From assembly GCF_000023205.1 (NCBI RefSeq), contig NC_012803.1, forward strand, positions 240,001-272,000: a stretch of DNA of 32,000 nt, given 5' to 3'. The translations under genes and the position numbers were made by a program. Source of the DNA: Micrococcus luteus NCTC 2665 (lineage in GTDB: Bacteria; Actinomycetota; Actinomycetes; Actinomycetales; Micrococcaceae). Position 1 is the first letter of the stretch. Every line of letters starts with the position of its first letter. Below the pieces are notes generated by a model. It was given only the letters and a program-made list of their open reading frames with translations, searched no databases and was not told where the DNA came from. Positions 1 to 15,326 of the stretch are shown one piece after another.

Positions 1-90
1 TGGAGGCCACGATCCGGGACTGACCCCGGTCACGTCGTCGGACGACGACGGTGCCGCCGCGCCGCCGCCGTCCGACGTCTTCACCGCCGC

Positions 91-120
91 GAGCCGGACG
101 GGCGGCCGCCCGTCCGGCTC
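91..120. terminator. 30-bp perfect palindrome (GAGCCGGACGGGCGG|CCGCCCGTCCGGCTC). It lies between an upstream gene end (in-frame TGA at 21-23) and the membrane-protein gene. It could be an intrinsic-terminator-like hairpin or an operator.
   Basis: Read directly: the two 15-nt halves are exact reverse complements. It sits 20 nt upstream of the ATG at 141. No U-tail follows. Confidence 0.35.
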
Positions 121-140
121 GCGATCGAAAGGACACCACG

Positions 141-1517
141 ATGGACTCGTCCCGCCCCGCAGACCACGAGCTGCACACCGACACCACCGCGATGGCCGCG
201 ATCGAGGCCGACGCGCCCCGCCCGCCGGCGCGCTGGCGCATGATCGTCTACTCGACGATCGGCATCGTCATGTTCTTCGTGCCCGTCACGATCAACGGGG
301 CGAGCTCCATCCCGCTGGACCACCTGGTGACCTGGGTGCGCGGGCTGCTCGGCCCGGCCGACCGCTGGGTGGGCCTGGCCATCATCGCCGCCGGCGCCGT
401 GTACCCGTTCGCCTCGGGCCGCTGGCGGACCAGCACCACGCGGACGGTCTTCGCCCTCCTCGCCGTGCTCGGCCTGGTCGCCTCGGCGATGGTCGTGTTC
501 GGCGTGGGCCCGAGCTGGATCCTGGACGAGAGCATCGGCCCGTTCCTGATGGACAAGCTCGTGGTGCCCGTGGGCCTGATCGTCCCCATCGGCGGCGTCT
601 TCCTGGCCCTCGTGATCGGCTACGGCCTCATGGAGTTCGTGGGCGTCTACCTGCGCCCGGCCATGCGGCCGATCTGGCGCGTGCCCGGCCGCGCCGCCGT
701 CGACGCCGTCGCCTCCTTCGTGGGCTCCTACGCCCTGGGCCTGCTGCTGACGAACCGCATGTACACCGGGGGCCGCTACACGGCCCGCGAGGCGGCGATC
801 ATCGCCGTCGGGTTCTCCACGGTGTCCGCGACCTTCATGGTGATCGTCGCCAAGACGCTGGGCCTGATGGACATCTGGCTCTGGTACTTCTTCGGCACCC
901 TCGTGGTGACGTTCGTGGTCACGGCCATCACCGTGCGCCTCCCGCCGCTGAGCCGCATCCCGGACGAGGTGTACCCCGGCGCGGTGCACTCGCCCGAGCA
1001 GGCCGTCACCCGGGACCGCTTCCGCGTGGCCCTGCGCGCCGCCGAGCAGACCCTCGCCGAGGCCCCGTCCCTGCCGAAGAACATCTGGGTCAACTTCCGG
1101 GACGGCCTCGTGATGGTGCTCCAGATCCTGCCCTCCATCATGTCCGTGGGCCTGATCGCCCTGGTCCTGGCCACGTACACGCCCGTGTTCGAGTGGATCG
1201 GCGTGATCTTCTACCCGCTGTTCTGGGCGCTGGGCTACTCCGACCCCGGCCTGCTGGCCTCGGCCTCCGCCACCTCGATCGCCGAGATGTTCATCCCGGC
1301 CACGATGGCGGCCGGTCACGAGGACCTCGTCGCCCGGTTCGTGATCGGCGTCGTCTGCGTCTCCGCGATCATCTTCTTCTCCGCGGTGGTTCCTGCCATC
1401 CTGGCCACGGACATCCCCGTGAAGATGTGGCACCTCCTGGTGATCTGGGTCGAGCGCGTGGCGCTCACCATCGTGCTGGCCACGCCGCTGGCCCACCTGG
1501 TGGCCGCGCTCACCTGA
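141..1517 (+). CDS. Polytopic inner-membrane protein, YjiH / GATE (nucleoside-recognition) family-like. Candidate hut-linked permease.
   Basis: ORF 51..1517. I prefer the ATG at 141 (MDSSRPADHE...), which follows AAAGGA. The product has many hydrophobic helices (IVYSTIGIVMFFVPVTINGASSIPLDHLV..., IIFFSAVVPAILATDIP...). High GC3 in this frame. It lies directly upstream of hutI and hutH on the same strand. The family call rests on pattern recognition only. Confidence 0.7.
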   Translation: MDSSRPADHELHTDTTAMAAIEADAPRPPARWRMIVYSTIGIVMFFVPVTINGASSIPLDHLVTWVRGLLGPADRWVGLAIIAAGAVYPFASGRWRTSTTRTVFALLAVLGLVASAMVVFGVGPSWILDESIGPFLMDKLVVPVGLIVPIGGVFLALVIGYGLMEFVGVYLRPAMRPIWRVPGRAAVDAVASFVGSYALGLLLTNRMYTGGRYTAREAAIIAVGFSTVSATFMVIVAKTLGLMDIWLWYFFGTLVVTFVVTAITVRLPPLSRIPDEVYPGAVHSPEQAVTRDRFRVALRAAEQTLAEAPSLPKNIWVNFRDGLVMVLQILPSIMSVGLIALVLATYTPVFEWIGVIFYPLFWALGYSDPGLLASASATSIAEMFIPATMAAGHEDLVARFVIGVVCVSAIIFFSAVVPAILATDIPVKMWHLLVIWVERVALTIVLATPLAHLVAALT

Positions 1518-1564
1518 GGCCCGCCCCACCGCCCCACCCCCGTCCGTCCCGCAGAGAGGCCCCC

Positions 1565-2770
1565 ATGCGCTCCACGCTCATCACCGACATCGCCGAGCTG
1601 ACCACCGTCGACCCCGAAGGGCGGGTGCTCACGGACGCGGCCGTCGTCGTCGAGGACGAGCGCATCGCCTGGATCGGCCCTGCCGCGGACGCCCCGGACG
1701 CGGACGACCGGGTGTCCGTCGAGGGCCGCGCCGTGCTGCCCGGCTGGGTGGACTCCCACACGCACCTCGTGTTCGACGGGGACCGCTCCGCCGAGTTCGA
1801 GGCCCGCATGGCCGGTGAGTCCTACGCGGCCGGCGGCATCGGCGTGACCACCTCCGCCACCCGTGCCGCCTCGGACGACCGCCTGGCCGAGCTGGTCCGC
1901 GGCCGGGTGGCCGACGCGGTGGCCGGCGGCACCACCTACCTCGAGACCAAGACCGGCTACGGGCTCACCGTGGAGGAGGAGGCGCGCCACGCGCGCCTGC
2001 TGGCCGGGCTGCGCGAGGAGGGCCTCGTGGACGAGGTGACCTTCCTCGGTGCCCACCTCGTGCCCCCGGGCCGGGACGCGGAGGACTACCTCGACGACGT
2101 CGTCGGACCGATGCTCGAGGCCGTGCGGGAGCACGCGGGCTGGGTGGACGTGTTCTGCGACACCGGCGCCTTCGACGCCGAGCAGACCCGCCGCGTGCTC
2201 GCCGCGGGCGTGGCGGCGGGCCTGGGCGTGCGCCTGCACGGCAACCAGATCGAGCAGGGCCCGGGTGTGGGCGTGGCCGTGGAGTTCGGCGCCGCCTCCG
2301 TGGACCACGTCAACCACCTCTCCGACGCGGACGTCGAGGCCCTGGCCGGCACCTGGACCGGCTGGGACCGCGCCTCGGCCACCGGCACGCCCGGCACCGT
2401 GGCCGGCTGCCTGCCCGCGTGCGACCTGTCCACCCGCGCCCCGCTGGCGCCCGCGCGTCGCCTGCTCGACGCCGGCATCGAGGTCTCCCTGGCCTCGAAC
2501 TGCAACCCGGGCACCAGCTACACCACGTCCATGAACTTCAACGTGGGCACCGCCGTGCTGCAGATGCACCTGACCCTCGCCGAAGCCGTGCGCGCCGCCA
2601 CCCTCGGCGGGGCCCTCGGCCTGCGGGCGCAGGACCGCGTCGGCAGCCTCGAGGTCGGCAAGCGCGCCGACCTGCACGTGCTCGACGCCCCCGCCGCCAT
2701 CCACCTGGCCTACCGCCCCGGCATGCCGCTGACCCACGCGGTCTGGCGCGCGGGCCGTCGGGCCGTCTGA
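1565..2770 (+). CDS. hutI: Imidazolonepropionase
   Basis: In-frame ATG at 1565 within ORF 1193..2770. N-terminus MRSTLITDIAELTTVD...LPGWVDSHTHLVFDGDRSAEFEARMAGESY is typical of HutI (metal-binding HxH, amidohydrolase fold). Adjacent to hutH. Confidence 0.93.
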   Translation: MRSTLITDIAELTTVDPEGRVLTDAAVVVEDERIAWIGPAADAPDADDRVSVEGRAVLPGWVDSHTHLVFDGDRSAEFEARMAGESYAAGGIGVTTSATRAASDDRLAELVRGRVADAVAGGTTYLETKTGYGLTVEEEARHARLLAGLREEGLVDEVTFLGAHLVPPGRDAEDYLDDVVGPMLEAVREHAGWVDVFCDTGAFDAEQTRRVLAAGVAAGLGVRLHGNQIEQGPGVGVAVEFGAASVDHVNHLSDADVEALAGTWTGWDRASATGTPGTVAGCLPACDLSTRAPLAPARRLLDAGIEVSLASNCNPGTSYTTSMNFNVGTAVLQMHLTLAEAVRAATLGGALGLRAQDRVGSLEVGKRADLHVLDAPAAIHLAYRPGMPLTHAVWRAGRRAV

Positions 2771-2799
2771 TCGACCGACAGCAAGGAGAACGCATCACC

Positions 2800-4413
2800 A
2801 TGACCACCCCTCCCGTCACCGTCACGCTCGGCACGTCCGGGGCCACCCTGGACGACGTCGTCGCCGTGGCCCGCCACGACGCCCGCGTGGTGCTCGCCGA
2901 CGACGTGCTCGAGACCGTCGGCGCGGTGCGCCGCCACGTCGAGGCGCTGGCCGAGGCCGAGACCCCCACCTACGGCGTCTCCACCGGCTTCGGCGCGCTC
3001 GCGGACAAGCACATCCCGCTCGAGTCCCGCGCGCAGCTGCAGAAGTCCCTGATCCGCTCCCACGCCGCCGGCATGGGCCCCGTGGTGGAGCGCGAGGTCG
3101 TCCGCGCGCTGATGTTCCTGCGGGCCACCACGCTGGCCTCCGGCCGCACGGGCGTGCGCCCCGTGGTGGTCGAGACCTTCGTGGCCATGCTCAACGCGGG
3201 CATCACCCCCGCCGTGCGCGAGTTCGGCTCCCTGGGCTGCTCCGGTGACCTCGCACCGCTCTCCCACGTGGCCCTGGCGCTGATGGGCGAGGGCGACGTC
3301 GTCGGGACGGACGGCGCGCTGCGTCCGGCCGGCGAGGCGCTCGCCGAGGCCGGGATCGAGCCGGTCGAGCTGCGGGAGAAGGAGGGCCTGGCCCTCGTCA
3401 ACGGCACCGAGGGCATGCTCGGCATGCTGATCATGGCGCTGGCCGACCTCGAGGAGCTCGCCGACACCGTGGACCTCACCGCCGCGATGTCCGTGGAGGC
3501 GCTGCTCGGCACCGACCGCGTGTTCGTGCCGGAGCTGCACCTGCCGCTGCGCCCCCACCCGGGCCAGGCGACCTCCGCCGACCGGATGCTGAGGATCCTG
3601 GCGGGCTCGCCGATCGTGGCCAGCCACAAGGAGGGCGACTCCCGCGTGCAGGACGCCTACTCGCTGCGCTGCGCCCCGCAGGTGGCCGGCGGCCTGCGCG
3701 ACACCCTCGCGTACGTGCGCACCGTGGCCGAGCGTGAGCTCGCCGCGACCGTGGACAACCCGGTGGTGCTCGACGACGGCCGGGTGAGCTCGAACGGCAA
3801 CTTCCACGGGGCGCCCGTGGCGTACGTGCTGGACTTCCTGGCCATCCCGGTGGCCGACGTCGCCAGCATGTCCGAGCGCCGCACCGACCGCATGCTGGAC
3901 CCGGCCCGCTCGCACGGGCTGCCCGCGTTCCTCGTGGACGACCCGGGCGTGGACTCCGGCATGATGATCGCCCAGTACACGCAGGCCGGGCTCGTCTCGG
4001 ACATGAAGCGCCTGGCCGTGCCCGCGTCCGTGGACTCCATCCCGTCCTCCGCGATGCAGGAGGACCACGTCTCCATGGGTTGGCACGCCGCCCGCAAGCT
4101 GCGCTCGGCCGTGGAGAACTTCCGCCGCGTGCTCGCCGTCGAGCTCGTGGCCGCCGCCCGCGCGATCGAGCTGCGCGCGCCGCTGCAGCCCTCCGCCGCG
4201 ACCGGTGCCGCCGTCCGCGTGATCCGCGAGGCCGACGTCCCCGGTCCGGGCCCGGACCAGTACATGGCGCCGCAGCTGGCCGCCGCCGAGCAGGCCCTGC
4301 GCGACGGGTCCGTGCTGGCCGCCGTGGCGGAGGCGCTCGCGGGCGTGTCCGCCGACGCCGAGCCGCAGGACCTGGCCGAGGAGTCCGAGGGCGCCGGGGC
4401 CGAGGGGCACTGA
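2800..4413 (+). CDS. hutH: Histidine ammonia-lyase (MIO-dependent)
   Basis: ATG at 2800, preceded by AAGGAGA (2783-2789). Contains YGVSTGFGALA, GSLGCSGDLAPLSH (MIO-forming tripeptide region), NGTEGM and QEDHVSMG. Confidence 0.95.
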   Translation: MTTPPVTVTLGTSGATLDDVVAVARHDARVVLADDVLETVGAVRRHVEALAEAETPTYGVSTGFGALADKHIPLESRAQLQKSLIRSHAAGMGPVVEREVVRALMFLRATTLASGRTGVRPVVVETFVAMLNAGITPAVREFGSLGCSGDLAPLSHVALALMGEGDVVGTDGALRPAGEALAEAGIEPVELREKEGLALVNGTEGMLGMLIMALADLEELADTVDLTAAMSVEALLGTDRVFVPELHLPLRPHPGQATSADRMLRILAGSPIVASHKEGDSRVQDAYSLRCAPQVAGGLRDTLAYVRTVAERELAATVDNPVVLDDGRVSSNGNFHGAPVAYVLDFLAIPVADVASMSERRTDRMLDPARSHGLPAFLVDDPGVDSGMMIAQYTQAGLVSDMKRLAVPASVDSIPSSAMQEDHVSMGWHAARKLRSAVENFRRVLAVELVAAARAIELRAPLQPSAATGAAVRVIREADVPGPGPDQYMAPQLAAAEQALRDGSVLAAVAEALAGVSADAEPQDLAEESEGAGAEGH

Positions 4414-4434
4414 CGCTGCCGAGCGGCCCGACGC

Positions 4435-4497
4435 CACAGAGTGGTCACGACATGCCGCGTGCGTCTGGAATGGACGGCGTGTCGTGACCACTCTGTG
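4435..4497. terminator. Long hairpin: 18-bp perfect arms (CACAGAGTGGTCACGACA / TGTCGTGACCACTCTGTG) around a 27-nt partly self-pairing loop. Probable bidirectional terminator of the ancestral convergent hutH / hutG pair.
   Basis: Arms at 4435-4452 and 4480-4497 are exact reverse complements. The hairpin starts 22 nt after the hutH stop and ends 43 nt before the relic hutG stop at 4540. Confidence 0.55.
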
Positions 4498-4539
4498 TGC
4501 GGAGGGGGCGGCCTGCGGGTCGGGCCGGTCGGCTCCGGC

Positions 4540-4596
4540 TCAGGTGAGGAGCGCCGTCGTCGTCCTGTGCCTGCTGACGATCGTATGGATCAGGCG
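4540..4596 (-). pseudogene. hutG: Relic 3' end of hutG (19 codons plus stop, ...RLIHTIVSRHRTTTALLT*). Proposed attL-side direct repeat.
   Basis: Hand alignment to 9598-9654 (...RLIHTIVSRHRTDASLLA*) gives 44/57 nt identical, in the same register and with its own TGA. The core 25-mer at 4573-4597 matches 9631-9655 at 23/25. Confidence 0.6.
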
Positions 4597-4690
4597 GGAG
4601 ACAATCCGGGCAACGTCATGTGGTTGGTGTCGTGGGGTGAAGCCGGAACGGCGCGATCAGTCCGACTGCAGCACGACACCAGCTAAGGGC

Positions 4691-5230
4691 TTATCCCAGG
4701 AGTCCCTGTTGTTCGGCCCAGCACTTGAATCCTCCTGGGCCGAAGGGAAGCCGGTAATCGCCCATGATGAGATCGTCAGCGAGGCTCTCAACCATGGGAA
4801 CGGTGAGTTGCTCCTTGCGGATCGCCTCACAGAGCAACCCGAGGGTGCCGGTGCACTCGAGCTTCTCGCGCTTGGCCAGGACGCGGGGCACGTTGTCGTC
4901 GATCACGATGCGATACCCGTGCGTCCGACCGAGGGCTAGAACGCCGCATTCGCCCCGGTTCCGACCGCCCGCCACAAGGTGCTCCTCGTATCGGGCGAAG
5001 GCCGCGAGGAACTCGAGGTCCTCGCTGCGGTCCACGACGATCCATTCGGCGTCCAAGATCTGCCGGAGATCTGGGTGCTGGTACTGCTGGTCCCTGATCT
5101 CCTGCTCCACACTCTCCGGAATCACGGCATGGCCGGCTGTCAGGAACTTGAGCACACCGAGCCATCCTTTCAGGGTGAAATGGCGCAGTGGTCCCGTATC
5201 GAAGACGTAGGTCTCCGGAACGGCGGTCAC
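4691..5230 (-). CDS. PIN-like nuclease domain protein (DUF3368-like). Putative toxin.
   Basis: GTG start at 5230 overlaps the stop of the upstream gene (GTGA). Motifs: YVFDTGPL (N-terminal Asp), IPESVEQEI, GECGVLALG, IVIDDNVPR and TGTLGLL. These match the DUF3368/PIN pattern as I remember it. Confidence 0.7.
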   Translation of the reverse strand: MTAVPETYVFDTGPLRHFTLKGWLGVLKFLTAGHAVIPESVEQEIRDQQYQHPDLRQILDAEWIVVDRSEDLEFLAAFARYEEHLVAGGRNRGECGVLALGRTHGYRIVIDDNVPRVLAKREKLECTGTLGLLCEAIRKEQLTVPMVESLADDLIMGDYRLPFGPGGFKCWAEQQGLLG

Positions 5231-6339
5231 GAGACGTACTCCCAGATCTCCTGTTCCTGACGTGGGGGAAGGTCCGGAAGGTCGTCGTCGTCGAAAGTCC
5301 CATCCAAGAGGTCGAGTGTGCGTTCACGCGAGAGCTTCTCGGCCTCGAACAGCGCGATGACGTGCTTCTGGTACACCCGGGGCTGGGTAGTGCCTGCCAT
5401 CTCGTCAGACGGGTACAGATCGTGGGTGATGATGTCCGTCTGCGTGGTCTGCACAGCGCGGATGTCGTTTGCCGTGGAAGCGTCCACCAATTCCAGGTCG
5501 TGGAGTCGGCGGGCCAGGGTCGACATGTCCACCAGGTAGGTGCCGGCGATCTTCACAGCGGCAGTGCGGACATCGCCTGAGTGAGCTGCGGCGGGCCATT
5601 CCTGTAAAAGGACAGCTGCTGGCAGGAGAAATGCTCGAGCGAACCGATCGAGGCGACCCTCGATGTCCGGGCCGGTGTGGGCGGTGCGCCAGTCCACCGT
5701 GTATTCATCGGCAAGTAGGTAGTGCCCAAGCTCGTGCACGGCGGAGAGGCGGCGTCGCCCGACCTTGGGGGTGGAATTCACCAGGGAGATGCCGCCCTCG
5801 GCGAGGAGCACCGTTCCCGCGTCAGCGGCGTCCACGCCGAAGTTGCGGGAGAACAGGAGCAGGCCAGCAGTGGCCAGGTGCGCCTGGAGGTCCTTTACGG
5901 GTTCCGTTGCTGTATACCCGACGTGCTCGCGTGCCCGGGCGGCCATGTCGTCGGCCTCGTGAACGGACTTGGGCTGCTCCCAGGGGTCCCGCACGCCGAA
6001 CCCCTCGATGGGATGCAGGCCGTGCAGGAACTCGACGTCTGCGAGGAGTTCGGCCAGCAGGTGGTCCACGGCCGACTCGGTGGTATCCAACCCCTGGGCG
6101 GAACGGTGCGAGACGAGCGCTGGCGCAGGCTCGGTGAAGAACGACTGCATTCGGGTTCCCAGGGCATCGGCGATGGAGGCCAGCTCCAGGGCAGTGACCT
6201 TCCGTTGTCCGCCTTCGATCCGGTTGACCATGGTGCGCTCGAGGCCAACGGCGGTAGCTAGGTCCTGCTGGGACATCCCGCGACGCTCCCGCGCGGCACG
6301 TACACGGGCACCCAGCGAATGAGGAGTGGTCGGCGACAT
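5227..6339 (-). CDS. Fusion protein: XRE-family HTH, then ImmA/IrrE (COG2856) zinc metallopeptidase, then a C-terminal tail. Putative antitoxin/regulator.
   Basis: HTH: LGARVRAARERRGMSQQDLATAVGLERTMVNRIEGGQRKV. HEXXH motif: AVHELGHYLL, followed by FARAFLLPA. ATG at 6339 (MSPTTPHS...); an alternative in-frame ATG lies at 6360. Translationally coupled to the PIN gene. Confidence 0.85.
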   Translation of the reverse strand: MSPTTPHSLGARVRAARERRGMSQQDLATAVGLERTMVNRIEGGQRKVTALELASIADALGTRMQSFFTEPAPALVSHRSAQGLDTTESAVDHLLAELLADVEFLHGLHPIEGFGVRDPWEQPKSVHEADDMAARAREHVGYTATEPVKDLQAHLATAGLLLFSRNFGVDAADAGTVLLAEGGISLVNSTPKVGRRRLSAVHELGHYLLADEYTVDWRTAHTGPDIEGRLDRFARAFLLPAAVLLQEWPAAAHSGDVRTAAVKIAGTYLVDMSTLARRLHDLELVDASTANDIRAVQTTQTDIITHDLYPSDEMAGTTQPRVYQKHVIALFEAEKLSRERTLDLLDGTFDDDDLPDLPPRQEQEIWEYVS

Positions 6340-6361
6340 GTGTGCGATTCTCGCACACATG
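6337..6361. promoter_or_regulatory. Perfect 11-3-11 palindrome CATGTGTGCGA-TTC-TCGCACACATG overlapping both candidate start codons of the XRE-ImmA gene. Probable autoregulatory operator.
   Basis: Read directly. The half-sites are exact reverse complements. The spacing suits a dimeric HTH protein. It sits in the 90-bp divergent gap between the XRE-ImmA gene and the hsdR remnant. Confidence 0.55.
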
Positions 6362-6374
6362 GCACTGGCGGTGA

Positions 6375-8747
6375 ACCCTCGTCGCATACGCTGATGCGTT
6401 CGAGAACAAGCGCCGCGCCGCACTGCTGGTGATGGCCACCGGCACCGGGAAGACGTGCACCGCCGTCGCCCTGGTGGACCAGATGGCCCGCGCCGGATGG
6501 GTCAAGCGCGTGCTCTTCCTGGCGGACCGGCAGGCCCTCGTGAAGCAGGCCGCGGACGCCTTCGTGGAGCACGGCTTCGTCGGCACCACCGTGAACCTGC
6601 TGAAGAACCGGCACGGGGAGGGACGCGTCTACGCCTCCACCTACCCCACCATGCTCGGCCTCATCCAGGAGTCCACCGGCCAGGGCGCCCGCTTCGACCC
6701 CGGATACTTCGACCTGGTGATCGTGGACGAGGCCCACCGGTCCGTATACGCCAAGTACGGCGAGATCTTCCGCCACTTCGATGCCCTTCTCGTGGGCCTC
6801 ACCGCCACCCCCAAGGACGAGATCGACCGGAACACCTACGGCCTCTTCGGCCTCGAGCCCGGCGTGCCGACTGATGCCTACACCCTCGACGAGGCCGTGG
6901 CGGACGGGTTCCTGGTGCCGCCGCGGGGCGTCTCCGTGGGCACCACCTTCCTGCGTCGCGGCACCCGGTACGATCAGCTTCCCGCCGAGGAGCAGGAGGC
7001 CTGGGACGCGCTGGACTGGGGCGAGGACGAGGCGCCCGAGGAGGTTTCGAGCGAGGAGATCAACCGGTTCCTCTTCAATGCGGACACCGTGGACCGCGTG
7101 CTCTCCACCCTCAGGGAGCACGGCCACAAGGTGGCCGACGGCGAACGGCTCGGCAAGACCATCGTCTTCGCCAAGAACCAGCCGCACGCCGAGTTCATCC
7201 TGCAGCGGTTCGACGCCCAGTGGCCGGAGCTCGGCGGCCGGTACGCCCAGATCATCACCCACGCCAGCCGCTACCCGGACGCCCTGCTGGACGACTTCAA
7301 GACCCCCGGCAAGGCCCCGCACATCGCCATCAGCGTGGACATGCTGGACACGGGGGTGGACGTGCCCGACGTCGTCAACCTCGTGTTCTTCAAGCTCATC
7401 CGCTCCAAGACCAAGTTCTGGCAGATGATCGGCCGCGGCACCCGCCTGCGCCCGGACCTCTACGGGCCGGGGAGGGACAAGGAGGACTTCCTCGTCTTCG
7501 ACTGGTGCCAGAACCTCGAGTTCTTCAACCAGGACCTCCCGGAGTCCGACGGCTTCACCCAGAGGTCCCTCACCCAGCGGTTGTTCGAGGACCGGCTCGC
7601 GCTCGTCGTCGCCCTCGACGCGCTGGACGACGATGCCGGGGCGCCCGCCGCCGTCGGGCCGGAGGAACGCGCGGTGCGCGAGCTACGCCGCACCGCCGCC
7701 GAGGAGCTGCAGGCGGCCATCGCCCGCCTGACCCTCGAGAACGTCCTGGCCCGCCCCCACCGCAGGGAGGTCGAGGAGTTCCAGCGGCCTGAGGCGTGGA
7801 CGTCCCTGAGCGCCCAGGCCGCCGAACGGGCACGCGCGCTGGCCGGTGTGGTCACCGGGCTGCCGGGGGAGGACATCGACGCCAAGCGCTTCGACCTGCT
7901 CATCGTGCGCCGGCAGCTGGCAGACCTCACCGGGGAGGCCGGCACGGCCGAGCGCATCCGGACCACGGTGCAGTCCCTCGCGGAGAACCTGCTCTCCAAG
8001 GACGCCATCCCCGCCATCAAGGAACAGATCATCCTCCTCGAGGCCGTGGCCGGAGAGGAATGGTGGGAGGGCGTCACTCTCGGCATGCTCGAGCACGCCC
8101 GGAAGAAGCTGCGCGGGCTCGTCCAGTTCATCGAGAAGGTCCGCCGCTCCCGCGTATACACGGACTTCGCGGACACGCTCACGCAGCTTGAGGAGGTCGA
8201 CGTCGTGCGGCCGACGCCCGGCGTGGACATCGAACGGTTCTGGGCCAAGGTCAGCGAGCCGCTGCGCCGCAACGAGTCCTCGCTGGCGCTGCAGAAGCTG
8301 CGCCACGGCAAGCAGCTCACCAAGCAGGACCTGGAGTCGCTCGAACAGCTGCTCCGGAGCATCGGGGCCGAGGACGTGCACCTGGCCGCGGCGAAGTCCG
8401 AGGGCGAGGGACAGCTGGGCCTGTTCGTGCGCATGCTAGTGGGGATGGATCGCGCCGCCGCGCAGGGTGTGGTCGCGGACTTCGTCCAGGACCGGACGCT
8501 CACCCAGGCGCAGATCCGCTTCCTGGGTCACATGGTGGAGGAGCTGACCGCCAACGGCGTCCTGGACGCCGGCCGGCTGTTCGAGTCCCCCTACACGGAC
8601 GACGCCCCCGAGGGGCCGTTCGGCCTGTTCGAGGAGGCGCAGGTGTACTCCCTGCGCGAGCGGCTGGACCTCGTCCGGGCGTCTGCGATGGTGCCGGGAC
8701 CAGAAGCGAACGCGGACGGGGACGAGGCGTGCGGCGTCGTCGCATGA
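6375..8747 (+). pseudogene. hsdR: 5'-truncated type I restriction enzyme R subunit (EcoEI/COG4096-like HsdR). The helicase core and EcoEI_R_C-like C-terminus are retained; the nuclease N-terminal domain is missing.
   Basis: The open frame after TGA 6372-6374 reads TLVAYADAFENKRRAALLVMATGTGKTCTAVALVDQMARAGWVKRVLFLADRQALVKQA (Walker A about 20 codons from the frame start). DEAH box: VIVDEAHRS. TATP, DMLDTGVDVP and QMIGRGTR motifs are present. The C-terminus (...RFLGHMVEELTANGVLD...LFESPYTD) resembles the EcoEI R C-terminal domain. No hsdM or hsdS is nearby. Only GTG 6429 or ATG 6432, inside the Walker A region, is available as a start. Confidence 0.8.
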
Positions 8748-8824
8748 CCTCACCGGACGGTGAGCCGAGTCGTGATATCCGCCCTTCTGCGAGCCTCCAG
8801 TTTCTATGACTGCTCACGTAGTGT

Positions 8825-9151
8825 TCAGACATGACTCCCGTCACCTGCCCCAGGGCCCCCAAGCGAGGCCATAGGAAAGAGACTGCTCGTGCACGTTGTC
8901 CGCACTGTGGCTCTTCCCCAGGTCCGGGCGTTACCCCACCAACAGAGACATTGATCGCTCTGCCCCCAGGGCCGGAGGGTGCCGATAGACAGACTTCCCC
9001 AATGGAATGTGAGCGACGTCGTCGAATCGATGAAGTGCTTCAGTTGGCTGGTGACCTTCTGGTCACGGAAAGCATCCGGGAAGTTCGTACGCACCTTCTC
9101 GATTTTGCCGTAGCCTACGGCGAACAGGGGCGTGGACGAGTGCGGCGCCAT
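8825..9151 (-). CDS. Hypothetical ORF, possibly a decayed fragment.
   Basis: The first ~50 codons (MAPHSSTPLFAVGYGKIEKVRTNFPDAFRDQKVTSQLKHFIDSTTSL...) have clearly higher GC3 than the opposite-strand frame. The distal half is Trp/Cys/Arg-rich and looks non-coding. No family recognised. Confidence 0.25.
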   Translation of the reverse strand: MAPHSSTPLFAVGYGKIEKVRTNFPDAFRDQKVTSQLKHFIDSTTSLTFHWGSLSIGTLRPWGQSDQCLCWWGNARTWGRATVRTTCTSSLFPMASLGGPGAGDGSHV

Positions 9152-9154
9152 GCT

Positions 9155-9466
9155 ATGTGCCAGGTACTTGCCGAGGTGGCGAATGCGCTAGATCCAGGCG
9201 AATACATCGATGAAGCAGCCGCTCGCATCAGGACAGCCCTCGCCACGGCAGGTCTTCCTCGACCGGTCGTCGCCTTGGCAATCGCAGCGACAAAGAAGAT
9301 TGCAGCGGGAGCCGTGGAGGGGATCAATCCGACTGAGCAGATTCGTTTGGCGATCTGGATGCTCATCTCTGTGCTCTGCCCGAGGCCGGAGGTGTGCCCG
9401 GCTCAGCCAAAATCAGGCGTGGAGGTTCTTAAAGAAGCTCTGGAAGATGCAGAGTCTGTTTTCTGA
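9155..9466 (+). CDS. Hypothetical small protein (103 aa), island cargo.
   Basis: Internal ATG of ORF 8831..9466. The composition looks protein-like (MCQVLAEVANALDPGEYIDEAAARIRTALATAGLPRPVVALAIAATKKIAAGAVEG...). Low GC. Divergent from the 8825..9151 ORF with a 3-nt gap. No family recognised. Confidence 0.35.
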   Translation: MCQVLAEVANALDPGEYIDEAAARIRTALATAGLPRPVVALAIAATKKIAAGAVEGINPTEQIRLAIWMLISVLCPRPEVCPAQPKSGVEVLKEALEDAESVF

Positions 9467-9507
9467 TCATCACAGAGGCTGAGTGACCCTCAACGCACCT
9501 CGCTACC

Positions 9508-9573
9508 TCAGCGGCGGTGGCGGCCGACGATCGTGTGGATCAGCCGCACCGCGGCCCTCGCGGTGCGGCCCCC
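9508..9573 (-). pseudogene. hutG: Second relic copy of the hutG 3' end (GGRTARAAVRLIHTIVGRHRR*), 108 nt from the functional copy.
   Basis: 9514-9570 aligns with 9622-9678. The core at 9523-9547 matches 9631-9655 at 23/25. It has its own TGA at 9508-9510 and is in the same frame as hutG. Confidence 0.55.
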
Positions 9574-9597
9574 GCGCCCGAATGGACCCCGGCCCGC

Positions 9598-10644
9598 TCA
9601 GGCCAGCAGCGACGCGTCCGTCCGGTGACGGCTGACGATCGTGTGGATCAGCCGGGCCGCGGCCTTCGCCGTGCGGCCGTCCACGTCCAGGGCGGGGTTG
9701 AGCTCCACGACGTCGGCCAGGGCCAGCTTCCCGGACTGGGTGGCCTCCAGTGTGCACGCGTGGATCACCTCGTACGGCACGCCGAAGCCGGCCGGTGCGC
9801 TCACCCCCGGGGCGACGGCGGCCGGCAGCACATCCAGGTCGATCGTCAGGTAGAGCACGTCCACGGCGGTGATGAACGAGCGCACCCAGCGGCGCACGCC
9901 GGTGACGTCGGCGGTCTGGGCCTGCTCGTCGGTCACCCACGTGACCCCGCGTTCGCGCGCGGTGTCGAACAGGGCGCGGGTGTTGTTGGCCTCGCTGATG
10001 CCCACCACCGCGTAGGAGAGCTGATGCTCCGCCCCCTCGGCGTCCCGCAGCGCCTGCAGGAACGGGGTGCCGGAGCTGGGCCGCGGCGCCTCGCGCAGGT
10101 CGAAGTGCGCGTCCAGGTTGAGGATGCCCACGCGGGTGCCCGCAGCCACGCGCGTGGAGCCGGTCAGCCCCGTGATCGAGGCGTAGGCGGTCTCGTGCCC
10201 GCCGCCGAGCACCACGGCCAGGTCGTGGGCGTTCAGCAGCCCGCTGACCACTGTGCCCAGCTCGGCCTGGCCCGCCTCGAGCTCGCCCGGGGCGTCGTCG
10301 TCGCCGCGGTCCACGGACACGTCGCCCGCGTCCACGAGCGCGCCCGTGCCCTCGAGGTACGCGAGCGAGGCGAGAGCGCCGCGCAGCGCCTCCGGGCCGT
10401 CCTCGGCGCCCACGCGGCCGTGGTTCCGGCGCACGCCCTCGTCCGAGGCGAAGCCGATGAGCGCCGTGGACCGCGCGCCCGACGTCGGAGCGCCGGCGCC
10501 GGGGTCGCGCTGCGGCGTCGTGGGATCGCCGCGGCCGTCGGCGGGGCGGACGACCTGGTGCCAGCGCAGGTGCTCGGGGGTGTCACCGTCGGTGCGGCCG
10601 GTCCAGGCGGGGGAGAGGGACGGGGAGGGGAGCTCGGAGGTCAT
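9598..10644 (-). CDS. hutG: Formimidoylglutamase (arginase/ureohydrolase superfamily)
   Basis: C-terminal 348 codons of track ORF 9598..11922. ATG at 10644 (MTSELPSP...); alternative at 10662. Motifs: LGGGHETAY, NLDAHFDLR, TIDLDVL, APGVSAP. The upstream part of the long ORF is an Arg/Pro-rich shadow frame over the neighbouring genes. Confidence 0.88.
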   Translation of the reverse strand: MTSELPSPSLSPAWTGRTDGDTPEHLRWHQVVRPADGRGDPTTPQRDPGAGAPTSGARSTALIGFASDEGVRRNHGRVGAEDGPEALRGALASLAYLEGTGALVDAGDVSVDRGDDDAPGELEAGQAELGTVVSGLLNAHDLAVVLGGGHETAYASITGLTGSTRVAAGTRVGILNLDAHFDLREAPRPSSGTPFLQALRDAEGAEHQLSYAVVGISEANNTRALFDTARERGVTWVTDEQAQTADVTGVRRWVRSFITAVDVLYLTIDLDVLPAAVAPGVSAPAGFGVPYEVIHACTLEATQSGKLALADVVELNPALDVDGRTAKAAARLIHTIVSRHRTDASLLA

Positions 10645-10688
10645 GGGCCCATCCCACGCCATCGACGGGCGGGTGCGCAACGAGGGCC

Positions 10689-10716
10689 GGACGACGCCCG
10701 ACATGGGGCGTCGTCC
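10689..10716 (-). terminator. Hairpin (11-bp stem GGACGACGCCC / GGGCGTCGTCC, 6-nt loop) immediately after the CoA-binding protein gene.
   Basis: Exact complementarity read at 10689-10699 and 10706-10716. It starts 3 nt after the TAG at 10719-10721 on the minus strand. Confidence 0.5.
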
Positions 10717-10718
10717 GC

Positions 10719-11234
10719 CTAGCGGTCCAGTTCCTGGCGCCGTGAGCTGATCACGCCGGTGACGAAGCCGGCGAGGTTGAGCCCGCCGTGGAAGCGGGCG
10801 TGCTCGATCTTCACGCAGCGATCCATGACGATCTCCAGGCCCGCGGCCTCGGCCTGACGCGCGGCGTCCTCGTTCCAGATGCCCAGCTGCAGCCACACGG
10901 TCCGGGCGCCCACGCGGGCGGCGTCCGCCACCACCTCGGGGGCGTCGGAGGACTTGCGGAACACCTCCACGAGGTCCGGGGTGACGGGCAGGTCGTCCAG
11001 CGAGGCGTAGACGCGGTGGCCGAGGATCTCCTTGCCGGCCGCGGCGAGCACGGGATTGACGAAGTAGACGTCGTACGTGGTCGAGCTCAGCAGGTACGTG
11101 GCCACGAAGTACGACGCACGGGCCGGCTTGTCCGAGGCGCCGACGATCGCGATCGAGCGGGTGCGGCGCAGGATCGCCAGGCGCTCGGGGGCGCCGGGGC
11201 CGGTCCAGGTGCGCTCGGGGTGGGTGGTGCTCAT
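10719..11234 (-). CDS. CoA-binding domain protein (YccU/YneT-like)
   Basis: IAIVGASDKPARASYFV, RVYASLDDLP..PDLVEVFR and TVWLQLG are typical of the CoA_binding_2 family. The start lies 3 nt after the metY stop, so co-transcription is likely. Confidence 0.85.
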   Translation of the reverse strand: MSTTHPERTWTGPGAPERLAILRRTRSIAIVGASDKPARASYFVATYLLSSTTYDVYFVNPVLAAAGKEILGHRVYASLDDLPVTPDLVEVFRKSSDAPEVVADAARVGARTVWLQLGIWNEDAARQAEAAGLEIVMDRCVKIEHARFHGGLNLAGFVTGVISSRRQELDR

Positions 11235-11237
11235 GGC

Positions 11238-12608
11238 TCAGGCCTCCTGCTCTGCGGGGACGACGGCGCCGTCGCGGGTGCGGCCGGTGGCTTCGGTCAG
11301 AGCCTGGTCCAGGTCCCAGAGGATGTCCTCGGTGTCCTCGATGCCCACCGAGATGCGGATCAGGTCCGCCGGGATGCCCGCGGCCACGAGCTGCTCGGCG
11401 GTGAGCTGCTGATGGGTCGTCGTGGCGGGGTGCAGCACCAGCGTCTTCGCGTCGCCGATGTTGGCCAGGTGGGAGGCCAGCTGCAGCGCCGAGATGAAGC
11501 GCGCCGCCGTCGCGCGCCCGGCCTCCGGACCGGAGGCGCCGTCGTCGGTGTCCGTGGCCGCCGGGGCCACGCCGAAGCTGAACACCGAGCCGACGCCCCG
11601 GGGCAGCAGCTGCTGCGCGCGGGCGTGGTGCGGGTGGCCGGGCAGGCCGGCGTAGCGGACCCAGGAGACGCGCGGGTCCTCGTCCAGCCAGGTGGCGACG
11701 GCGCGGGCGTTGGCGAGGTGGGCGTCCATGCGCGGGGCCAGCGTCTCGACGCCGAGCAGCAGCTGGAACGCCGACTGCGGGGCCAGCGACGGGCCGAAGT
11801 CGCGCAGCTGCTCCGAGCGGAGCTTGGTGAGGAAGCCGTACTCGCCGAAGTTGCCCCACCAGGAGACGCCGCCGTACGAGGGCACGGGCTCGGTCATCGA
11901 CGGGAACTTGCCGTTGTCCCACGGGAAGCGACCGGACTCCACCACGACGCCGCCCAGCGTGGTGCCGTGGCCGCCGAGGAACTTCGTGGCCGAATGGATG
12001 ACGATGTCCGCGCCGTGCTCGATCGGCCGGATCAGATAGGGCGGGGTGAGGGTCGCGTCCACGACGAGCGGCACGCCGTGCCGGTGGGCGACGTCGGCCA
12101 GGCCCGGTAGGTCCACGACGTCACCGGAGGGGTTGGCGACGATCTCCGTGTAGACGGCCTTGGTGTTGGGCTGGAGGGCGGCCTCGAAGTCCGCGGCCTC
12201 GGCGGAGTCCACGAACGTGGTCTCGACGCCGAACCGGCGCAGGGAGACGTCCAGCTGGGTGATCGTGCCGCCGTAGAGCTTCGAGGACGCCACGATGTGG
12301 TCGCCGGCCCCGGCGAGGGCCGCGAAGGTGACGAACTCGGCGGCCATGCCGGACGCCGTCGCGACGGCCCCGATCCCGCCCTCGAGCGTGGCGACCCGCT
12401 CCTCGAACGCGGCGACCGTGGGGTTGCCGATCCGCGAGTAGATGTTGCCGTACTTCTGCAGCGCGAAGAGGTTGGCGGCGTCCTCGGCGGACTCGAACAC
12501 GAAGGAGCTGGTCTGGTGGATCGGCACGGCCCGCGAGCCGTGGACGGCGTCCGGGACGGCGCCCGCGTGCAGCGCCTGGGTGCGGAAGCCGAACTCGTGG
12601 TCAGCCAC
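11238..12608 (-). CDS. metY: O-acetylhomoserine sulfhydrylase / aminocarboxypropyltransferase (PLP-dependent)
   Basis: GTG at 12608, preceded by GAAAGGA. Begins VADHEFGFRTQALHAG...PIHQTSSFVF...YSRIGNPT. PLP-lysine motif HSATKFLGGHG. The upstream 45 codons of the track ORF run into a repeat element and are not coding. Confidence 0.9.
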   Translation of the reverse strand: MADHEFGFRTQALHAGAVPDAVHGSRAVPIHQTSSFVFESAEDAANLFALQKYGNIYSRIGNPTVAAFEERVATLEGGIGAVATASGMAAEFVTFAALAGAGDHIVASSKLYGGTITQLDVSLRRFGVETTFVDSAEAADFEAALQPNTKAVYTEIVANPSGDVVDLPGLADVAHRHGVPLVVDATLTPPYLIRPIEHGADIVIHSATKFLGGHGTTLGGVVVESGRFPWDNGKFPSMTEPVPSYGGVSWWGNFGEYGFLTKLRSEQLRDFGPSLAPQSAFQLLLGVETLAPRMDAHLANARAVATWLDEDPRVSWVRYAGLPGHPHHARAQQLLPRGVGSVFSFGVAPAATDTDDGASGPEAGRATAARFISALQLASHLANIGDAKTLVLHPATTTHQQLTAEQLVAAGIPADLIRISVGIEDTEDILWDLDQALTEATGRTRDGAVVPAEQEA

Positions 12609-12722
12609 GGGGGTCCTTTCGATGGAGGCTTCGGGACAGTCCGTCCCATTGTCCCGGGCGAGGCGCGCCGAGTGCAGGGTGGGCACGTCGCAGAGCGTCA
12701 CGCGGCGCCGGCCGGTGGCATG

Positions 12723-12817
12723 CAACGCGGGTTGAGTTATCACCGATTACGCGGGCCTGGACCCGTGACAACTCAACCCGCGTTGGACGGGACCCGTGAC
12801 AACTCAACCCGCGTTGG
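12723..12817. repeat. Palindromic element, copy A. A 21-bp stem (1 mismatch) with a 21-nt loop at 12723-12785, plus a tandem duplicate of its right arm (28-bp unit at 12759-12786 and 12790-12817).
   Basis: CAACGCGGGTTGAGTTATCAC ... GTGACAACTCAACCCGCGTTG read directly. The unit GGACCCGTGACAACTCAACCCGCGTTGG occurs twice with a 3-nt spacer. Confidence 0.85.
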
Positions 12818-12832
12818 CCGGGAGGGGGCGGA

Positions 12833-13765
12833 TCAGCGCGTGCGGGCCAGCCGACGCCGGACCAGCCCCACGATCCGCCCGAACCCAGCGCGCTGGTCCT
12901 CCCAGGTGCAGCGCAGGGTCGTCCATTCCCGCTCGAGGCAGTACGCGTCCCGACGGGCGTCCCTCGCCTGCTGCTGAGCCGTGCGGTGGCCGGCGCCGTC
13001 GTACTGGAGGGCCAGGCGCGCCCCCCGGTACCCGAGGTCCACGACGGGCGAGGCCGGGTCGGCCGGGTCGACGGCGACCTGCAGCTCCGGCTCCGGCAGC
13101 CCGGCCCGGATCAGCGCGAGCCGGAGGAAGGTCTCGGGCGGGGAGTCGGCCCCGACGCGCACCTCCGCCAGCGCGGCACGTGCGAGACGGACACCCGGCC
13201 GGCCACGGCAGCGGGCGAGCACCTCCGACAGCTCGGACACGGTGGCCGCGGGATCCGCCCGGCCCGTCGGCGTCCACGGCGGACGCACCAGGTGGTCGCC
13301 GGCCGCGATGAGCCAGTCCACCTCGTGGGGGCGGAGCATCCCGGCGAGGTCGAACCAGGTGCGCGCAGCCGTCGTGACGCGCTGGCCGTCGGGAAGGTCG
13401 AGCACGTGGTCGGTGGGCAGCCGCACCCGGTGGCTGACGGCGCCGCCCAGGTCGGTCCGGTGCGTGCGCGCGGACCGGTCGAAGGTCAGGTGCAGCCCGG
13501 CCGGCCGCGCGAGGCGGGGCGGCAGCGGCAGTCCGTGCCAGAGGGCGGCAGAGACGTGGGAGACCACCCCGCCCGTGAGGCGGGCCAGCGCGGCCGCGCC
13601 GTCCGGGGAGCACGGGTCGGGGGCGCCCGCGGTGTGCACGCCGCGGCAGATCCGGGCGAGGTCTGCCGCGAGGGTCCGGCGCCACGGCAGGCCGGCGGCG
13701 TGCAGCTCGGCCGTCGTGAAGGCGCCCGCGGCGAGGGCGGGCGGCAGGGGCGTGCGCGCGGTCAT
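12833..13765 (-). CDS. DUF559 (Vsr-like endonuclease fold) protein with an AbiEi-like N-terminal region
   Basis: ATG at 13765 (MTARTPLPPALAAGAFTTAELHAAGLPWRR...CRGVH). C-terminus: SPPETFLRLALIRAGLPEPELQ...DLGY...ALQYDGAGH...D..RD..L...W..LR. This is the pattern of the multi-copy actinobacterial DUF559 family. Confidence 0.8.
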   Translation of the reverse strand: MTARTPLPPALAAGAFTTAELHAAGLPWRRTLAADLARICRGVHTAGAPDPCSPDGAAALARLTGGVVSHVSAALWHGLPLPPRLARPAGLHLTFDRSARTHRTDLGGAVSHRVRLPTDHVLDLPDGQRVTTAARTWFDLAGMLRPHEVDWLIAAGDHLVRPPWTPTGRADPAATVSELSEVLARCRGRPGVRLARAALAEVRVGADSPPETFLRLALIRAGLPEPELQVAVDPADPASPVVDLGYRGARLALQYDGAGHRTAQQQARDARRDAYCLEREWTTLRCTWEDQRAGFGRIVGLVRRRLARTR

Positions 13766-13885
13766 GGGGCGAGCCTGCCGCCCCCGGACCCTGCGACGGA
13801 TCGAACCGATGCGCCCTGGGGAGGGCCGCCGTCGTCGTGGTGGCTGTGCAGGAGCGGCCGGCCCGCCGGACACGGCGGCCCCGGC

Positions 13886-13950
13886 ACGACGCGGGTTGAG
13901 TTATCACGGGTGCAAGCCGCCTGGACCCGCGATAACTCAACCAGCGTTGC
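13886..13950. repeat. Palindromic element, copy B. Same orientation and architecture as copy A.
   Basis: ACGCGGGTTGAGTTATCAC (13889-13907) is identical to 12725-12743. The 21-nt loop ends in the same GCCTGGACCC. The right arm GCGATAACTCAACCAGCGTTGC matches copy A at 18/22. Confidence 0.85.
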
Positions 13951-13974
13951 AGGGGGGAGCGGCCGGCCCGTCGG

Positions 13975-14511
13975 TCACGGCGTGCGGTCCACGGACACCA
14001 GCTCCACGTCCTCGAGCCGCCCGCCCCGCACCACCGCGCGCATCAGGGTGCACACCGGCTGCCGCCTCCGGTCCGTGCAGGAGCCGGGGTTGAGCAGCCG
14101 CAGCCCCGGGTTCGCGGTGTCCGGACCGGCCACGGTGTCCCACGGGATGTGGCTGTGCCCGAAGACCAGCACGTCCGCGTCCGGGAACGCCGTGGCCATG
14201 CGGCGCTCGCGGCCGGCCGCCGGGCCCGTCTCGTGGACCATCGCGATCCGCACCCCGCCGAGCTCCACGCGCGCCACCTCGGGCAGCCGCGCCCGCAGCC
14301 CAGGCCCGTCGTTGTTGCCCCACACGCCCACCAGCCGGGCGGCCCGCGCGTCGAGGTCGTCGAGCACGTCCTCGGCCACCCAGTCACCGGCGTGGAGCAC
14401 GACGTCGGCCCGCGCCACCTCGGCCCGCACCTGCGCGGGCAGGGCGCGGGCACGCCGCGGGATGTGGGTGTCGGCGATCAGGAGCAGGCGGACGGCGACG
14501 TCGTCGGGCAC
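13975..14511 (-). CDS. Metallophosphoesterase (YfcE/MJ0936-like)
   Basis: GTG at 14511, 8 nt after the upstream stop. Motifs: IADTHIP, HAGDW, WGNNDG, MVHETG, FGHSHIP. Confidence 0.85.
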   Translation of the reverse strand: MPDDVAVRLLLIADTHIPRRARALPAQVRAEVARADVVLHAGDWVAEDVLDDLDARAARLVGVWGNNDGPGLRARLPEVARVELGGVRIAMVHETGPAAGRERRMATAFPDADVLVFGHSHIPWDTVAGPDTANPGLRLLNPGSCTDRRRQPVCTLMRAVVRGGRLEDVELVSVDRTP

Positions 14512-14519
14512 GGTCCGCC

Positions 14520-15326
14520 TCACCGCGCCGCGTACGCGCCGAGCCAGATCGCCAGCGGCAGGCCGACGATGAACACGGCCACGAATCCGCGCACCAGCCA
14601 CCGGCCCACTGGGGTGGCGAGGTTGACCGTCGCGCCCACCCCGTAGCCGGGACGCTTGGCGGGGAAGACAGCCGGGTCCTCGGGGTCGCGCTTGAGCCCC
14701 AGGGGCGTCCACACCTCGTCCTCGGCGAGCTCCGCGGCCGTGGGCCGGTACCCGAGCTCCGCCGCGACGCGGTCCGACCAGCGCGTCCACCGCTGCGTTC
14801 CGGCCCGCAGTTCCGGGAAGATGCCCACCATGAGCACGGTCAGTGTGAGGGGCAGGAGCCACCACGGCATCGTCCAGGTGCCGGCGGCGAGCACCTCGGC
14901 CGTCGTCGGGGCCAGCACCAGCACGATGAGCACGCACGACCACCCGAGGCTTTCCTGGACCCCGCGGTGCACCCCCGTCTGGCGCACGCGCCGCCACGGG
15001 GACAGTCCCGGATCCGTGGGGGTGAGGGCGGTGACCATAGCGGAGACCAGCGCCAGGAAACCCGTCATGCCGAGGCCGATCAGCGGCCCCGCCGCCACCG
15101 TGCCGAACGAGGTGTCCTCCCACGCATCCGGCCGCCCGTCGACGCCCCAGTGCGTGGGCACGCGCTCCGGCAGGCCCGGCAGGGCGACGAGGGCCCACCC
15201 CAGCAGCGCCAGGCACAGCACGGCCGCGAGCAGGAACGGCAGCCACGGACGCAGCCGGCCACGGCGCAGGGCGGCGCGCTCGGCGGCGGGGACGTCGTCG
15301 GGGGTGGGACGGGACGGGTGGGGCAT
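14520..15326 (-). CDS. Membrane protein with a DUF1648 (SdpI-like) N-terminal part and a DUF5808-like C-terminal part
   Basis: VPTHWGVDGRPDAW signature after the first TM helix. Several TM helices. C-terminal RPGYGVGATVNL. Family assignment is from memory of the family signatures. Confidence 0.7.
   Translation of the reverse strand: MPHPSRPTPDDVPAAERAALRRGRLRPWLPFLLAAVLCLALLGWALVALPGLPERVPTHWGVDGRPDAWEDTSFGTVAAGPLIGLGMTGFLALVSAMVTALTPTDPGLSPWRRVRQTGVHRGVQESLGWSCVLIVLVLAPTTAEVLAAGTWTMPWWLLPLTLTVLMVGIFPELRAGTQRWTRWSDRVAAELGYRPTAAELAEDEVWTPLGLKRDPEDPAVFPAKRPGYGVGATVNLATPVGRWLVRGFVAVFIVGLPLAIWLGAYAAR

Follow-up and report, generated by a model that had tools for sequence, protein, structure and literature searches.

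Gene ends that recur beside foreign DNA are known from several described systems. In the C-terminal displacement of rhs, contact-dependent inhibition (CDI) and type VI secretion system (T6SS) genes (PMC5361080), an intact gene is followed by truncated 3' ends in the same orientation, the stubs begin within conserved sequence and end in divergent tails, one side of the event is anchored by homology and the other is an illegitimate joint, and the arrays spread by ordinary homologous recombination. Islands that target tRNA or tmRNA genes, like the actinomycete integrative and conjugative elements (AICEs, e.g., pSAM2 and SLP1), have direct repeats of a gene's 3' end that bracket DNA of lower G+C content. 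Hot-spot defence islands hold variable lower-GC cargo (e.g., type I restriction-modification (R-M) and toxin-antitoxin genes) at a fixed position between core genes, where sister strains or species have other occupants, the island is more similar across species than its flanks, and no integrase is present. Features of these systems are also found in a 32,000-nt stretch of Micrococcus luteus NCTC 2665 (NC_012803.1, 240,001-272,000, forward strand; hereafter the window, whose first nucleotide is position 1), between the histidine catabolism genes hutH and hutG. A first reading of the window, made from its letters alone (the sequence-only reading), had taken the intervening DNA for the probably immobilised remnant of a site-specific element integrated into the 3' end of hutG and bounded by attachment (att) sites. 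The comparisons reported here point to a different history: with a probability of roughly 0.6, the segment at about 4545-9564 is a decayed defence island in a recombination-prone slot, and the orphan hutG ends (stubs) associated with it are scars of successive homologous and illegitimate recombination.

The likeness to the described systems is partial. Unlike the rhs/CDI/T6SS genes, hutG encodes a housekeeping catabolic enzyme and not a polymorphic toxin, there are two stubs only, which encode nothing useful, and the cargo is a defence island rather than toxin tips with immunity genes. Unlike most hot-spot islands, the copy in the window is largely dead (its R-M system has been deleted) and keeps the hutG stubs as scars.

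The history of the segment can be followed at its two joints with the flanking DNA. On the right, hutG (formimidoylglutamase, minus strand, 9598..10704; NCBIfam TIGR01227 at 277 bits, cut-off 229, and Pfam Arginase), its stop codon and about 33 nt beyond it are collinear with island-free relatives (Micrococcus sp. HMSC30C05, which is locus L038, and loci L039 and L020), the native 3' flank of the gene occupying 9571..9597, and divergence from these relatives begins after a common GGCCGC (right junction, J2, 9565-9570), just before the stop codon of their GntR gene. The gene also ends in ...RHRTDASLLA*, the same end as in island-free M. luteus relatives. Because of this collinearity, the working hutG end and its 3' flank are native and not supplied by an element. 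On the left, hutH (histidine ammonia-lyase, plus strand, 2800..4413; Pfam Lyase_aromatic, E=8.8e-186) is the native flank and is 98-100% identical to that of island-free HMSC30C05 as far as its stop codon. The alignment of window 1-4544 with L038 8164-3623 (97.3% identity) stops at the stop codon of a major facilitator superfamily (MFS) transporter gene, and the spacer at 4498..4544 is homologous to the DNA 3' of that gene in island-free relatives. At the left junction (J1, 4540-4549), CCTGAGCCGG is common to the MFS end and the first of the stubs. Identity to HMSC30C05 is 98-100% up to both joints and drops to 86-89% only in the intergenic 4380-4544, and the joints carry only short common strings, GGCCGC and CCTGAGC(CGG). 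Homology thus carries on unbroken across one flank, and at the other joint the microhomology is limited to a few bases, as in a scar of homology-facilitated illegitimate recombination (HFIR).

The DNA that the segment has displaced can be identified in the same relatives. In HMSC30C05, whose hutG protein is 99% identical to that of the window and whose flanks are 97.3% identical, there is no island and the order is hutG, GntR (minus), flavin reductase (plus), MFS transporter (plus) and hutH; loci L020 and L021 have this arrangement as well, with the same three-gene block. Because the left-side homology reaches the MFS stop codon (window 4544), the segment replaced the 2.75-kb GntR / flavin reductase / MFS block and did not split hutG.

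The window contains three copies of the hutG end. Copy C, the true end within hutG 9598..10704 on the minus strand, finishes in ...GRTAKAAARLIHTIVSRHRTDASLLA*; stub A (4540..4598, minus strand), an orphan 3' end at the far side of the island, encodes RLIHTIVSRHRTTTALLT; and stub B (9508..9570, minus strand), a second orphan end, encodes GRTARAAVRLIHTIVGRHRR. The stubs comprise 19-20 codons each and have the same orientation as hutG. For copies A and C the sequence-only reading had counted exactly: 44 of 57 positions are identical between 4540-4596 and 9598-9654, as are 23 of 25 in what it took for a core (4573-4597 versus 9631-9655), each copy can be translated in frame into a hutG C-terminus that has a stop codon of its own, and the similarity ends abruptly on the island side of stub A (14/62 identical just past it). 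The repeat can be extended to 4535-4598 versus 9593-9656 (50 of 64 identical). Stub B had been overlooked; it matches 9623-9678 at 50 of 56 positions (89%), lies 27 nt from the true hutG stop codon and, by the collinearity at J2, starts at a joint outside hutG. Chance matching in GC-rich DNA, which that reading had named as grounds for giving up its model, is not borne out, since the hutG end, compared without gaps to other 57-mers of the window, agrees with them at only 16.6 +/- 3.5 positions (sampled maximum 30), far below 44, and the 18-mer CTGATCCACACGATCGTC, allowing up to two mismatches, occurs three times in the window and not once across 100 of 100 shuffles. A tandem duplication was rejected as the origin of stub B, which resembles copy C over those 56 nt and has an unrelated tail. 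An assembly artefact was also ruled out, because one complete genome and over ten independent assemblies show the same structure: the window is collinear with the complete M. luteus genome CP041689.1 (locus L041; 98.07% over 16 kb), ten independent metagenome/SRA contigs have its structure at 100% identity, and four others have it at 99%.

The tails of the three copies differ in a way that is informative about where they come from. The C-terminal tail of hutG varies in Micrococcus, being TDASLLA in M. luteus and close relatives, TTTALLA in L036 (protein P0007), GRHRPRR in L037 (protein P0012) and RHRRG in M. flavus, with others too. By hand count, stub A is identical to the L036-type end at 48 of 54 nt versus 42 of 54 for the window's own end, and stub B resembles the L037-type end minus two codons; the stubs vary slightly among strains, and in CP041689.1 they read ...GRHRTTTVLLT* (A) and ...RHRH* (B). 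Because A is closest to the L036-type end and B to the L037-type end, the stubs look like hutG ends from other Micrococcus lineages, neither of them matching M. luteus. Homology in stub A starts at the equivalent of 9656 and in stub B at the equivalent of 9678, an offset of 22 nt, so that the stub boundaries do not mark one crossover position. The 18-nt core is found with 0 mismatches in hutG of L001 (M. luteus MAW843), L021, L022 (M. flavus), L036, L037 and L038, whose hutG proteins are about 70-80% identical to that of the window except those of L001 (96%) and L038 (99%). Since these 18 nt are invariant in seven other Micrococcus hutG sequences that were fetched, the "core" is accounted for by the conserved RLIHTIV codons and not by a recombination site. 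No second copy of the hutG end was found in the other hutG loci fetched, from Micrococcus or other genera, the contig scan with hutG as query having yielded just two Micrococcus loci and otherwise loci from other genera.

Of the integrative-element reading, there remain a foreign, lower-GC segment of about 5 kb, hutG-end repeats in the same orientation, defence cargo and the lack of a recombinase; integration into this hutG does not hold. An attL/attR pair with a replacement end is at odds with a native hutG end, a junction 33 nt outside the gene and three copies instead of two; the proposed att core is equally present in other Micrococcus hutG genes; and the intact element that was to be sought in relatives did not appear, as no sampled version of the island has a recombinase. 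Unlike elements that target gene 3' ends, the segment therefore lacks a recombinase gene, a crossover inside the target gene, equivalent repeat boundaries that would mark a shared crossover, and a core that codon conservation would leave unexplained. Judged from these alignments, it is an island remnant accompanied by hutG-end repeats and not an element integrated into this hutG. The absence of an integrase, on which that reading was right, was checked by a Pfam scan of the window's open reading frames (ORFs) over all 32 kb, by gene calls within 10 kb to either side in CP041689.1, and in the M. flavus islands and MAW843; no recombinase was found in any of these four sampled island versions, and there is no tRNA gene in the window.

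The decisive comparison is that of the occupants between hutG and hutH among Micrococcus lineages. Besides the three-gene block, M. flavus holds that block plus intact hsdR-hsdS-hsdM and an XRE-M78 gene, and in M. luteus MAW843 it is an intact R-M system with XRE-M78 and PIN that separates hutG from hutH, with no three-gene block and no extra hutG ends. The M. flavus loci end inside the XRE gene, which places the PIN-hutH side beyond their reach, and the MAW843 island ORFs were identified only by length and similarity to their counterparts in the window, CP041689.1 and M. flavus. In L037 and L049-52 (two lineages), hutG and hutH are directly convergent, about 90-130 nt apart with a long hairpin. 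Because its content differs in this way among lineages, the hutG-hutH interval is, on these comparisons, a variable slot. The premise that hutH and hutG should be convergent neighbours thus applies to these more distant lineages and fails for the closest island-free relatives, in which the site that was expected to be empty holds the three-gene block. Stub A in turn runs unbroken into the spacer, a hairpin (4435..4497) and hutH, as in lineages where hutG directly abuts the hairpin.

Between MAW843 and M. flavus, flanking core genes are 83% identical, hsdR 93.3%, and hsdM and XRE-M78 95.7%. Because island identity exceeds flank identity, the island moves between species, and does so without stubs or a recombinase; the pattern indicates that it was recently transferred from one species to another and that its specificity subunit was exchanged. 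In the comparison of the two R-M islands (L001 11064-18177 versus L022 13890-20999), the hsdS region does not align. The genes that the window shares with them are only 75-82% identical to the MAW843 and M. flavus versions, and no closer full-length hsdR was found in the protein database, where the next best is 79% identical.

The cargo of the segment is of the defence type that had been proposed, with an HTH_XRE plus Peptidase_M78 protein, a DUF3368/PIN-like protein and a type I R subunit that lacks its N-terminal part all confirmed, and a check upheld the compositional claim (G+C 0.60-0.70 in the island, 0.72-0.79 in the flanks). G+C content at third codon positions (GC3) is 0.78 for PIN, 0.79 for XRE-M78, 0.55 for the uncharacterised ORF211 and 0.95 for the hsdR remnant; hutG and hutH have 0.96-0.98. 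From the hutH side, a 92-nt island-specific spacer (4599..4690), without a match in the fetched loci beyond this island's own lineage, precedes the gene for the 179-aa DUF3368/PIN-like candidate toxin (4691..5230, minus strand; PADLOC PDC-S70, E=1.9e-18; PF11848). This gene overlaps by 4 nt the upstream, same-strand gene for an RmrA-like protein (5227..6339, minus strand) that combines an XRE-type helix-turn-helix (HTH; Pfam HTH_31/HTH_3) with an M78/ImmA protease domain (Pfam Peptidase_M78), its length of about 370 aa being set after the orthologues in MAW843 and M. flavus. It is matched at E<1e-12 by eleven of the PADLOC models for RmrA (best 6.5e-22). RmrA-type HTH plus ImmA protease antitoxins belong to the RosmerTA (RmrT/RmrA) phage-defence systems (PMC10440598), and the likeness extends to a small overlapping gene downstream on the same strand and to adjacent R-M genes; unlike in RosmerTA, the partner here is DUF3368/PIN-like (the PADLOC candidate PDC-S70), and the pair is known in this locus from its sequence. 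The two genes are intact and nearly invariant between strains, with too few substitutions between the window and CP041689.1 for constraint to be judged from the ratio of nonsynonymous to synonymous polymorphism (pN/pS). The pair probably still works as a RosmerTA-like toxin-antitoxin or phage-defence module.

The R-M part of the cargo has been truncated. At a deletion joint at 6358..6393, 3.6-3.8 kb are missing, which in MAW843 and M. flavus comprise hsdM, hsdS and some 370 codons from the start of hsdR. In the alignment with L001, window position 6358 pairs with 17207 and 6393 with 13403; in that with M. flavus, the homologies from the two sides come together at 6393. The truncated type I R subunit gene (hsdR remnant, 6429..8747, plus strand; PADLOC REase_I, model positions 370-1087 of 1107) retains the Pfam domains ResIII, Helicase_C and EcoEI_R_C and is 82% identical in nucleotides to the full-length hsdR of MAW843 and M. 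flavus. With no N-terminal hsdR nuclease region, and with hsdM and hsdS deleted, the window's R-M system is dead. Separately, the truncated hsdR ORF begins inside helicase motif I (...GTGKT) and, across the 129 members of its cluster, stays open over 771-776 aa; its pN/pS against CP041689.1 is 0.32 on about 36 substitutions, too few to infer selection.

The gene with the lowest GC3, ORF211 (8831..9466, plus strand), encodes an uncharacterised Cys/His-motif protein. A word-indexed search finds only its near-identical relatives, and a full HMMER scan finds 38 distant homologues. In 19 sequences of this family (~200 aa), H107, C110, C183, C189 and P190 are invariant, and the motifs include an N-terminal C-TAP-RGH...RCP-C, a conserved HWLC and CPxPDxCP. 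There is no Pfam, PHROG, NCBIfam or PDB sequence match, and the single-sequence AlphaFold model (predicted local distance difference test (pLDDT) score 66) is all-helical with no significant fold match. A decayed recombinase was rejected as the identity of ORF211, given the missing family match and an all-helical model without a significant fold match. The PADLOC model ThsB1 (PDLC00424) matches the N-terminal motif alone in 11 of the 19 family members, and a TIR identity for the family was rejected because the match covers just that Cys/His motif. The closest distant homologue (P0243, locus L047) lies on a plasmid-like contig, 46 bp from a convergent gene for a 206-aa resolvase that is 89% identical to one on Dermacoccus plasmids, and an Lsr2 gene also adjoins it. 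Because this homologue adjoins a plasmid-type resolvase, the neighbourhood hints that the low-GC ORF211 segment derives from a plasmid or another mobile element. Searches of plasmid and phage DNA with the island and with 8700-9600 gave nothing beyond generic helicase similarity, and tblastn of ORF211 against plasmids gave no match.

These observations can be brought together in a scheme of successive DNA imports. Stubs A and B would have been carried in or left behind by imports that each combined homologous recombination on one side with an illegitimate joint on the other, made at microhomology within or beside the 3' end of hutG, i.e., by HFIR and with no dedicated integrase. DNA would have entered by natural transformation; M. 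luteus is naturally competent (PMC4322843, PMC6667448), and the HFIR/displacement model has precedent (PMC5361080). First, an ancestor with hutG, hairpin and hutH would have received a B-type hutG 3' part together with ORF211, a type I R-M system, RmrA and PIN, the recipient's old hutG end remaining as stub A. Second, an exchange with ordinary M. luteus DNA would have fused a site 33 nt past a native hutG with the codons for GRTA in the B-type gene, leaving stub B and, relative to the island-free form, removing the GntR / flavin reductase / MFS block. Third, the internal 3.6-3.8 kb deletion would have taken hsdM, hsdS and the 5' third of hsdR. The illegitimate-joint mechanism and the order of the events are inferred, the order only so because no donor arrangement was found.

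Several points weigh against this scheme. Among the loci compared, no donor lineage has a B-type hutG contiguous with ORF211 and the island, and none has an A-type hutG directly abutting this hairpin; a metagenome scan for A-type ends returned this island only, with no native A-type hutG and no deletion product. Two independent joints within the last 63 nt of hutG are somewhat more of a coincidence than would be expected of random joints, so that some preference for the RLIHTIV codons, by site or by homology, is conceivable. Microhomologies of 6-10 GC-rich nucleotides are weak evidence in DNA of 73% G+C, and a recombinase gene may at one time have been part of the imported DNA, given the serine recombinase beside the ORF211 homologue. 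The 18-21 nt encoding RLIHTIV might even be a reusable landing pad that captures defence cargo repeatedly without a resident integrase, either through short-homology recombination or through a transient small serine recombinase such as that beside the ORF211 homologue. The idea is a long shot; if it were true, the two stubs would record two targeted insertions and not random joints.

The scheme of successive imports has its most serious competitor, itself unlikely, in an integrase-mediated insertion that took place in an ancestral or donor genome, at the RLIHTIV codons of a hutG adjoining hutH. Stub B would then be the end supplied by the element and stub A the displaced native end, the recombinase would have been lost, and exchange with M. 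luteus would have overwritten the body of hutG. Such an insertion would account for the start of both stubs inside the final 63 nt of the gene, and it suits the bracketing of the cargo by same-orientation stubs and the seamless passage from stub A to spacer, hairpin and hutH, as in directly convergent lineages; the identity of the core, however, is already accounted for by codon conservation. The resolvase gene found 46 bp from, and convergent with, the closest distant ORF211 homologue on a plasmid-like contig is a further point in its favour, although a 206-aa resolvase is not typical of integrases and none of the four sampled island versions contains a recombinase. Moreover, the same R-M/RmrA/PIN island sits in this slot of M. 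flavus and MAW843 without any hutG-end repeats, and a second hutG-end copy is missing from all hutG loci that were fetched for other lineages and genera.

RecA-dependent insertion of the Campbell type, in which a circle (e.g., a plasmid) with a captured hutG 3' end of about 60 nt recombines with the chromosomal hutG and duplicates its end, is quite improbable. The copies do share 18-21 nt of exact identity, but RecA acts very poorly on a homology as short as about 55 nt with 78-89% identity, and, although stub A is sharp at its 5' boundary and passes seamlessly at its 3' side into native sequence, the B/C junction 33 nt outside hutG would be left unexplained; similarly, the ORF211 segment is low in G+C and has plasmid-like relatives, but neither ORF211 nor 8700-9600 has a plasmid match. 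Chance similarity or an assembly artefact, for which only the high G+C content of the region speaks, can practically be discounted in view of the 44/57 matches against 16.6 +/- 3.5, the 0/100 shuffles, the in-frame copies and the recurrence in independent assemblies.

Under the preferred reading, that of a decayed defence island bordered by recombination scars, the locus represents no new class of mobile element and is a new example of a hot-spot defence island with displaced gene ends. It offers a clean, datable case of defence-island turnover at one slot in a naturally transformable actinobacterium, with four alternative slot occupants documented and the joints recorded in two orphan gene ends. 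For genome scans the case is a caution: low-GC DNA flanked by direct repeats of a gene's 3' end is insufficient proof of an att-type element, because conserved codons can mimic a core.

The hairpin at the hutH end of the slot has a 23-bp stem with arms 96% complementary and a folding energy of -61.9 kcal/mol (z = -7.9), and is probably a bidirectional terminator. In an Rfam search of 4300-9800, it gave only sub-threshold matches to miRNA models and no family. Members of the hairpin family stand directly after hutG in L002 (a contig that stops short of any hutH), after MFS in L038 and L020, and after PIN in L001. A stable, long hairpin is always found at the hutH end of the slot, its neighbour being hutG, MFS, PIN or stub A (e.g., L002 ~11006-11058, L038 3665-3727, L001 18905-18960 and L049 ~10030-10095). 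The hairpins of L001 and L049 have other stem sequences and the same architecture, as if a bidirectional terminator had been conserved there.

Other variable segments occur near the island. On the 5' side of hutG, identity to MAW843 falls to about 35-60% at 10576-10720, 11170-11270 and 11470-11570, within surroundings of 80-99%; these stretches sit at the 5' end and upstream of hutG, at the boundary between the CoA-binding and Cys-Met genes, and inside the Cys-Met gene, as local mosaicism or indels. The hutG homologue P0029, from an ENA contig of 10.7 kb, is 90% identical to the hutG protein of the window over its C-terminal 74%, its first ~110 residues being unrelated, which suggests a rearrangement on the 5' side of hutG in another strain. 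Further along, window 12600-14570 forms a second variable segment, which MAW843 lacks and in place of which it has about 0.5 kb. A palindromic element of about 37-76 nt (GTGACAACTCAACCCGCGTTG and its complement) is present there in inverted copies at 12714-12822 and 13876-13955, which flank about 1.1 kb with an ORF that lacks a Pfam match.

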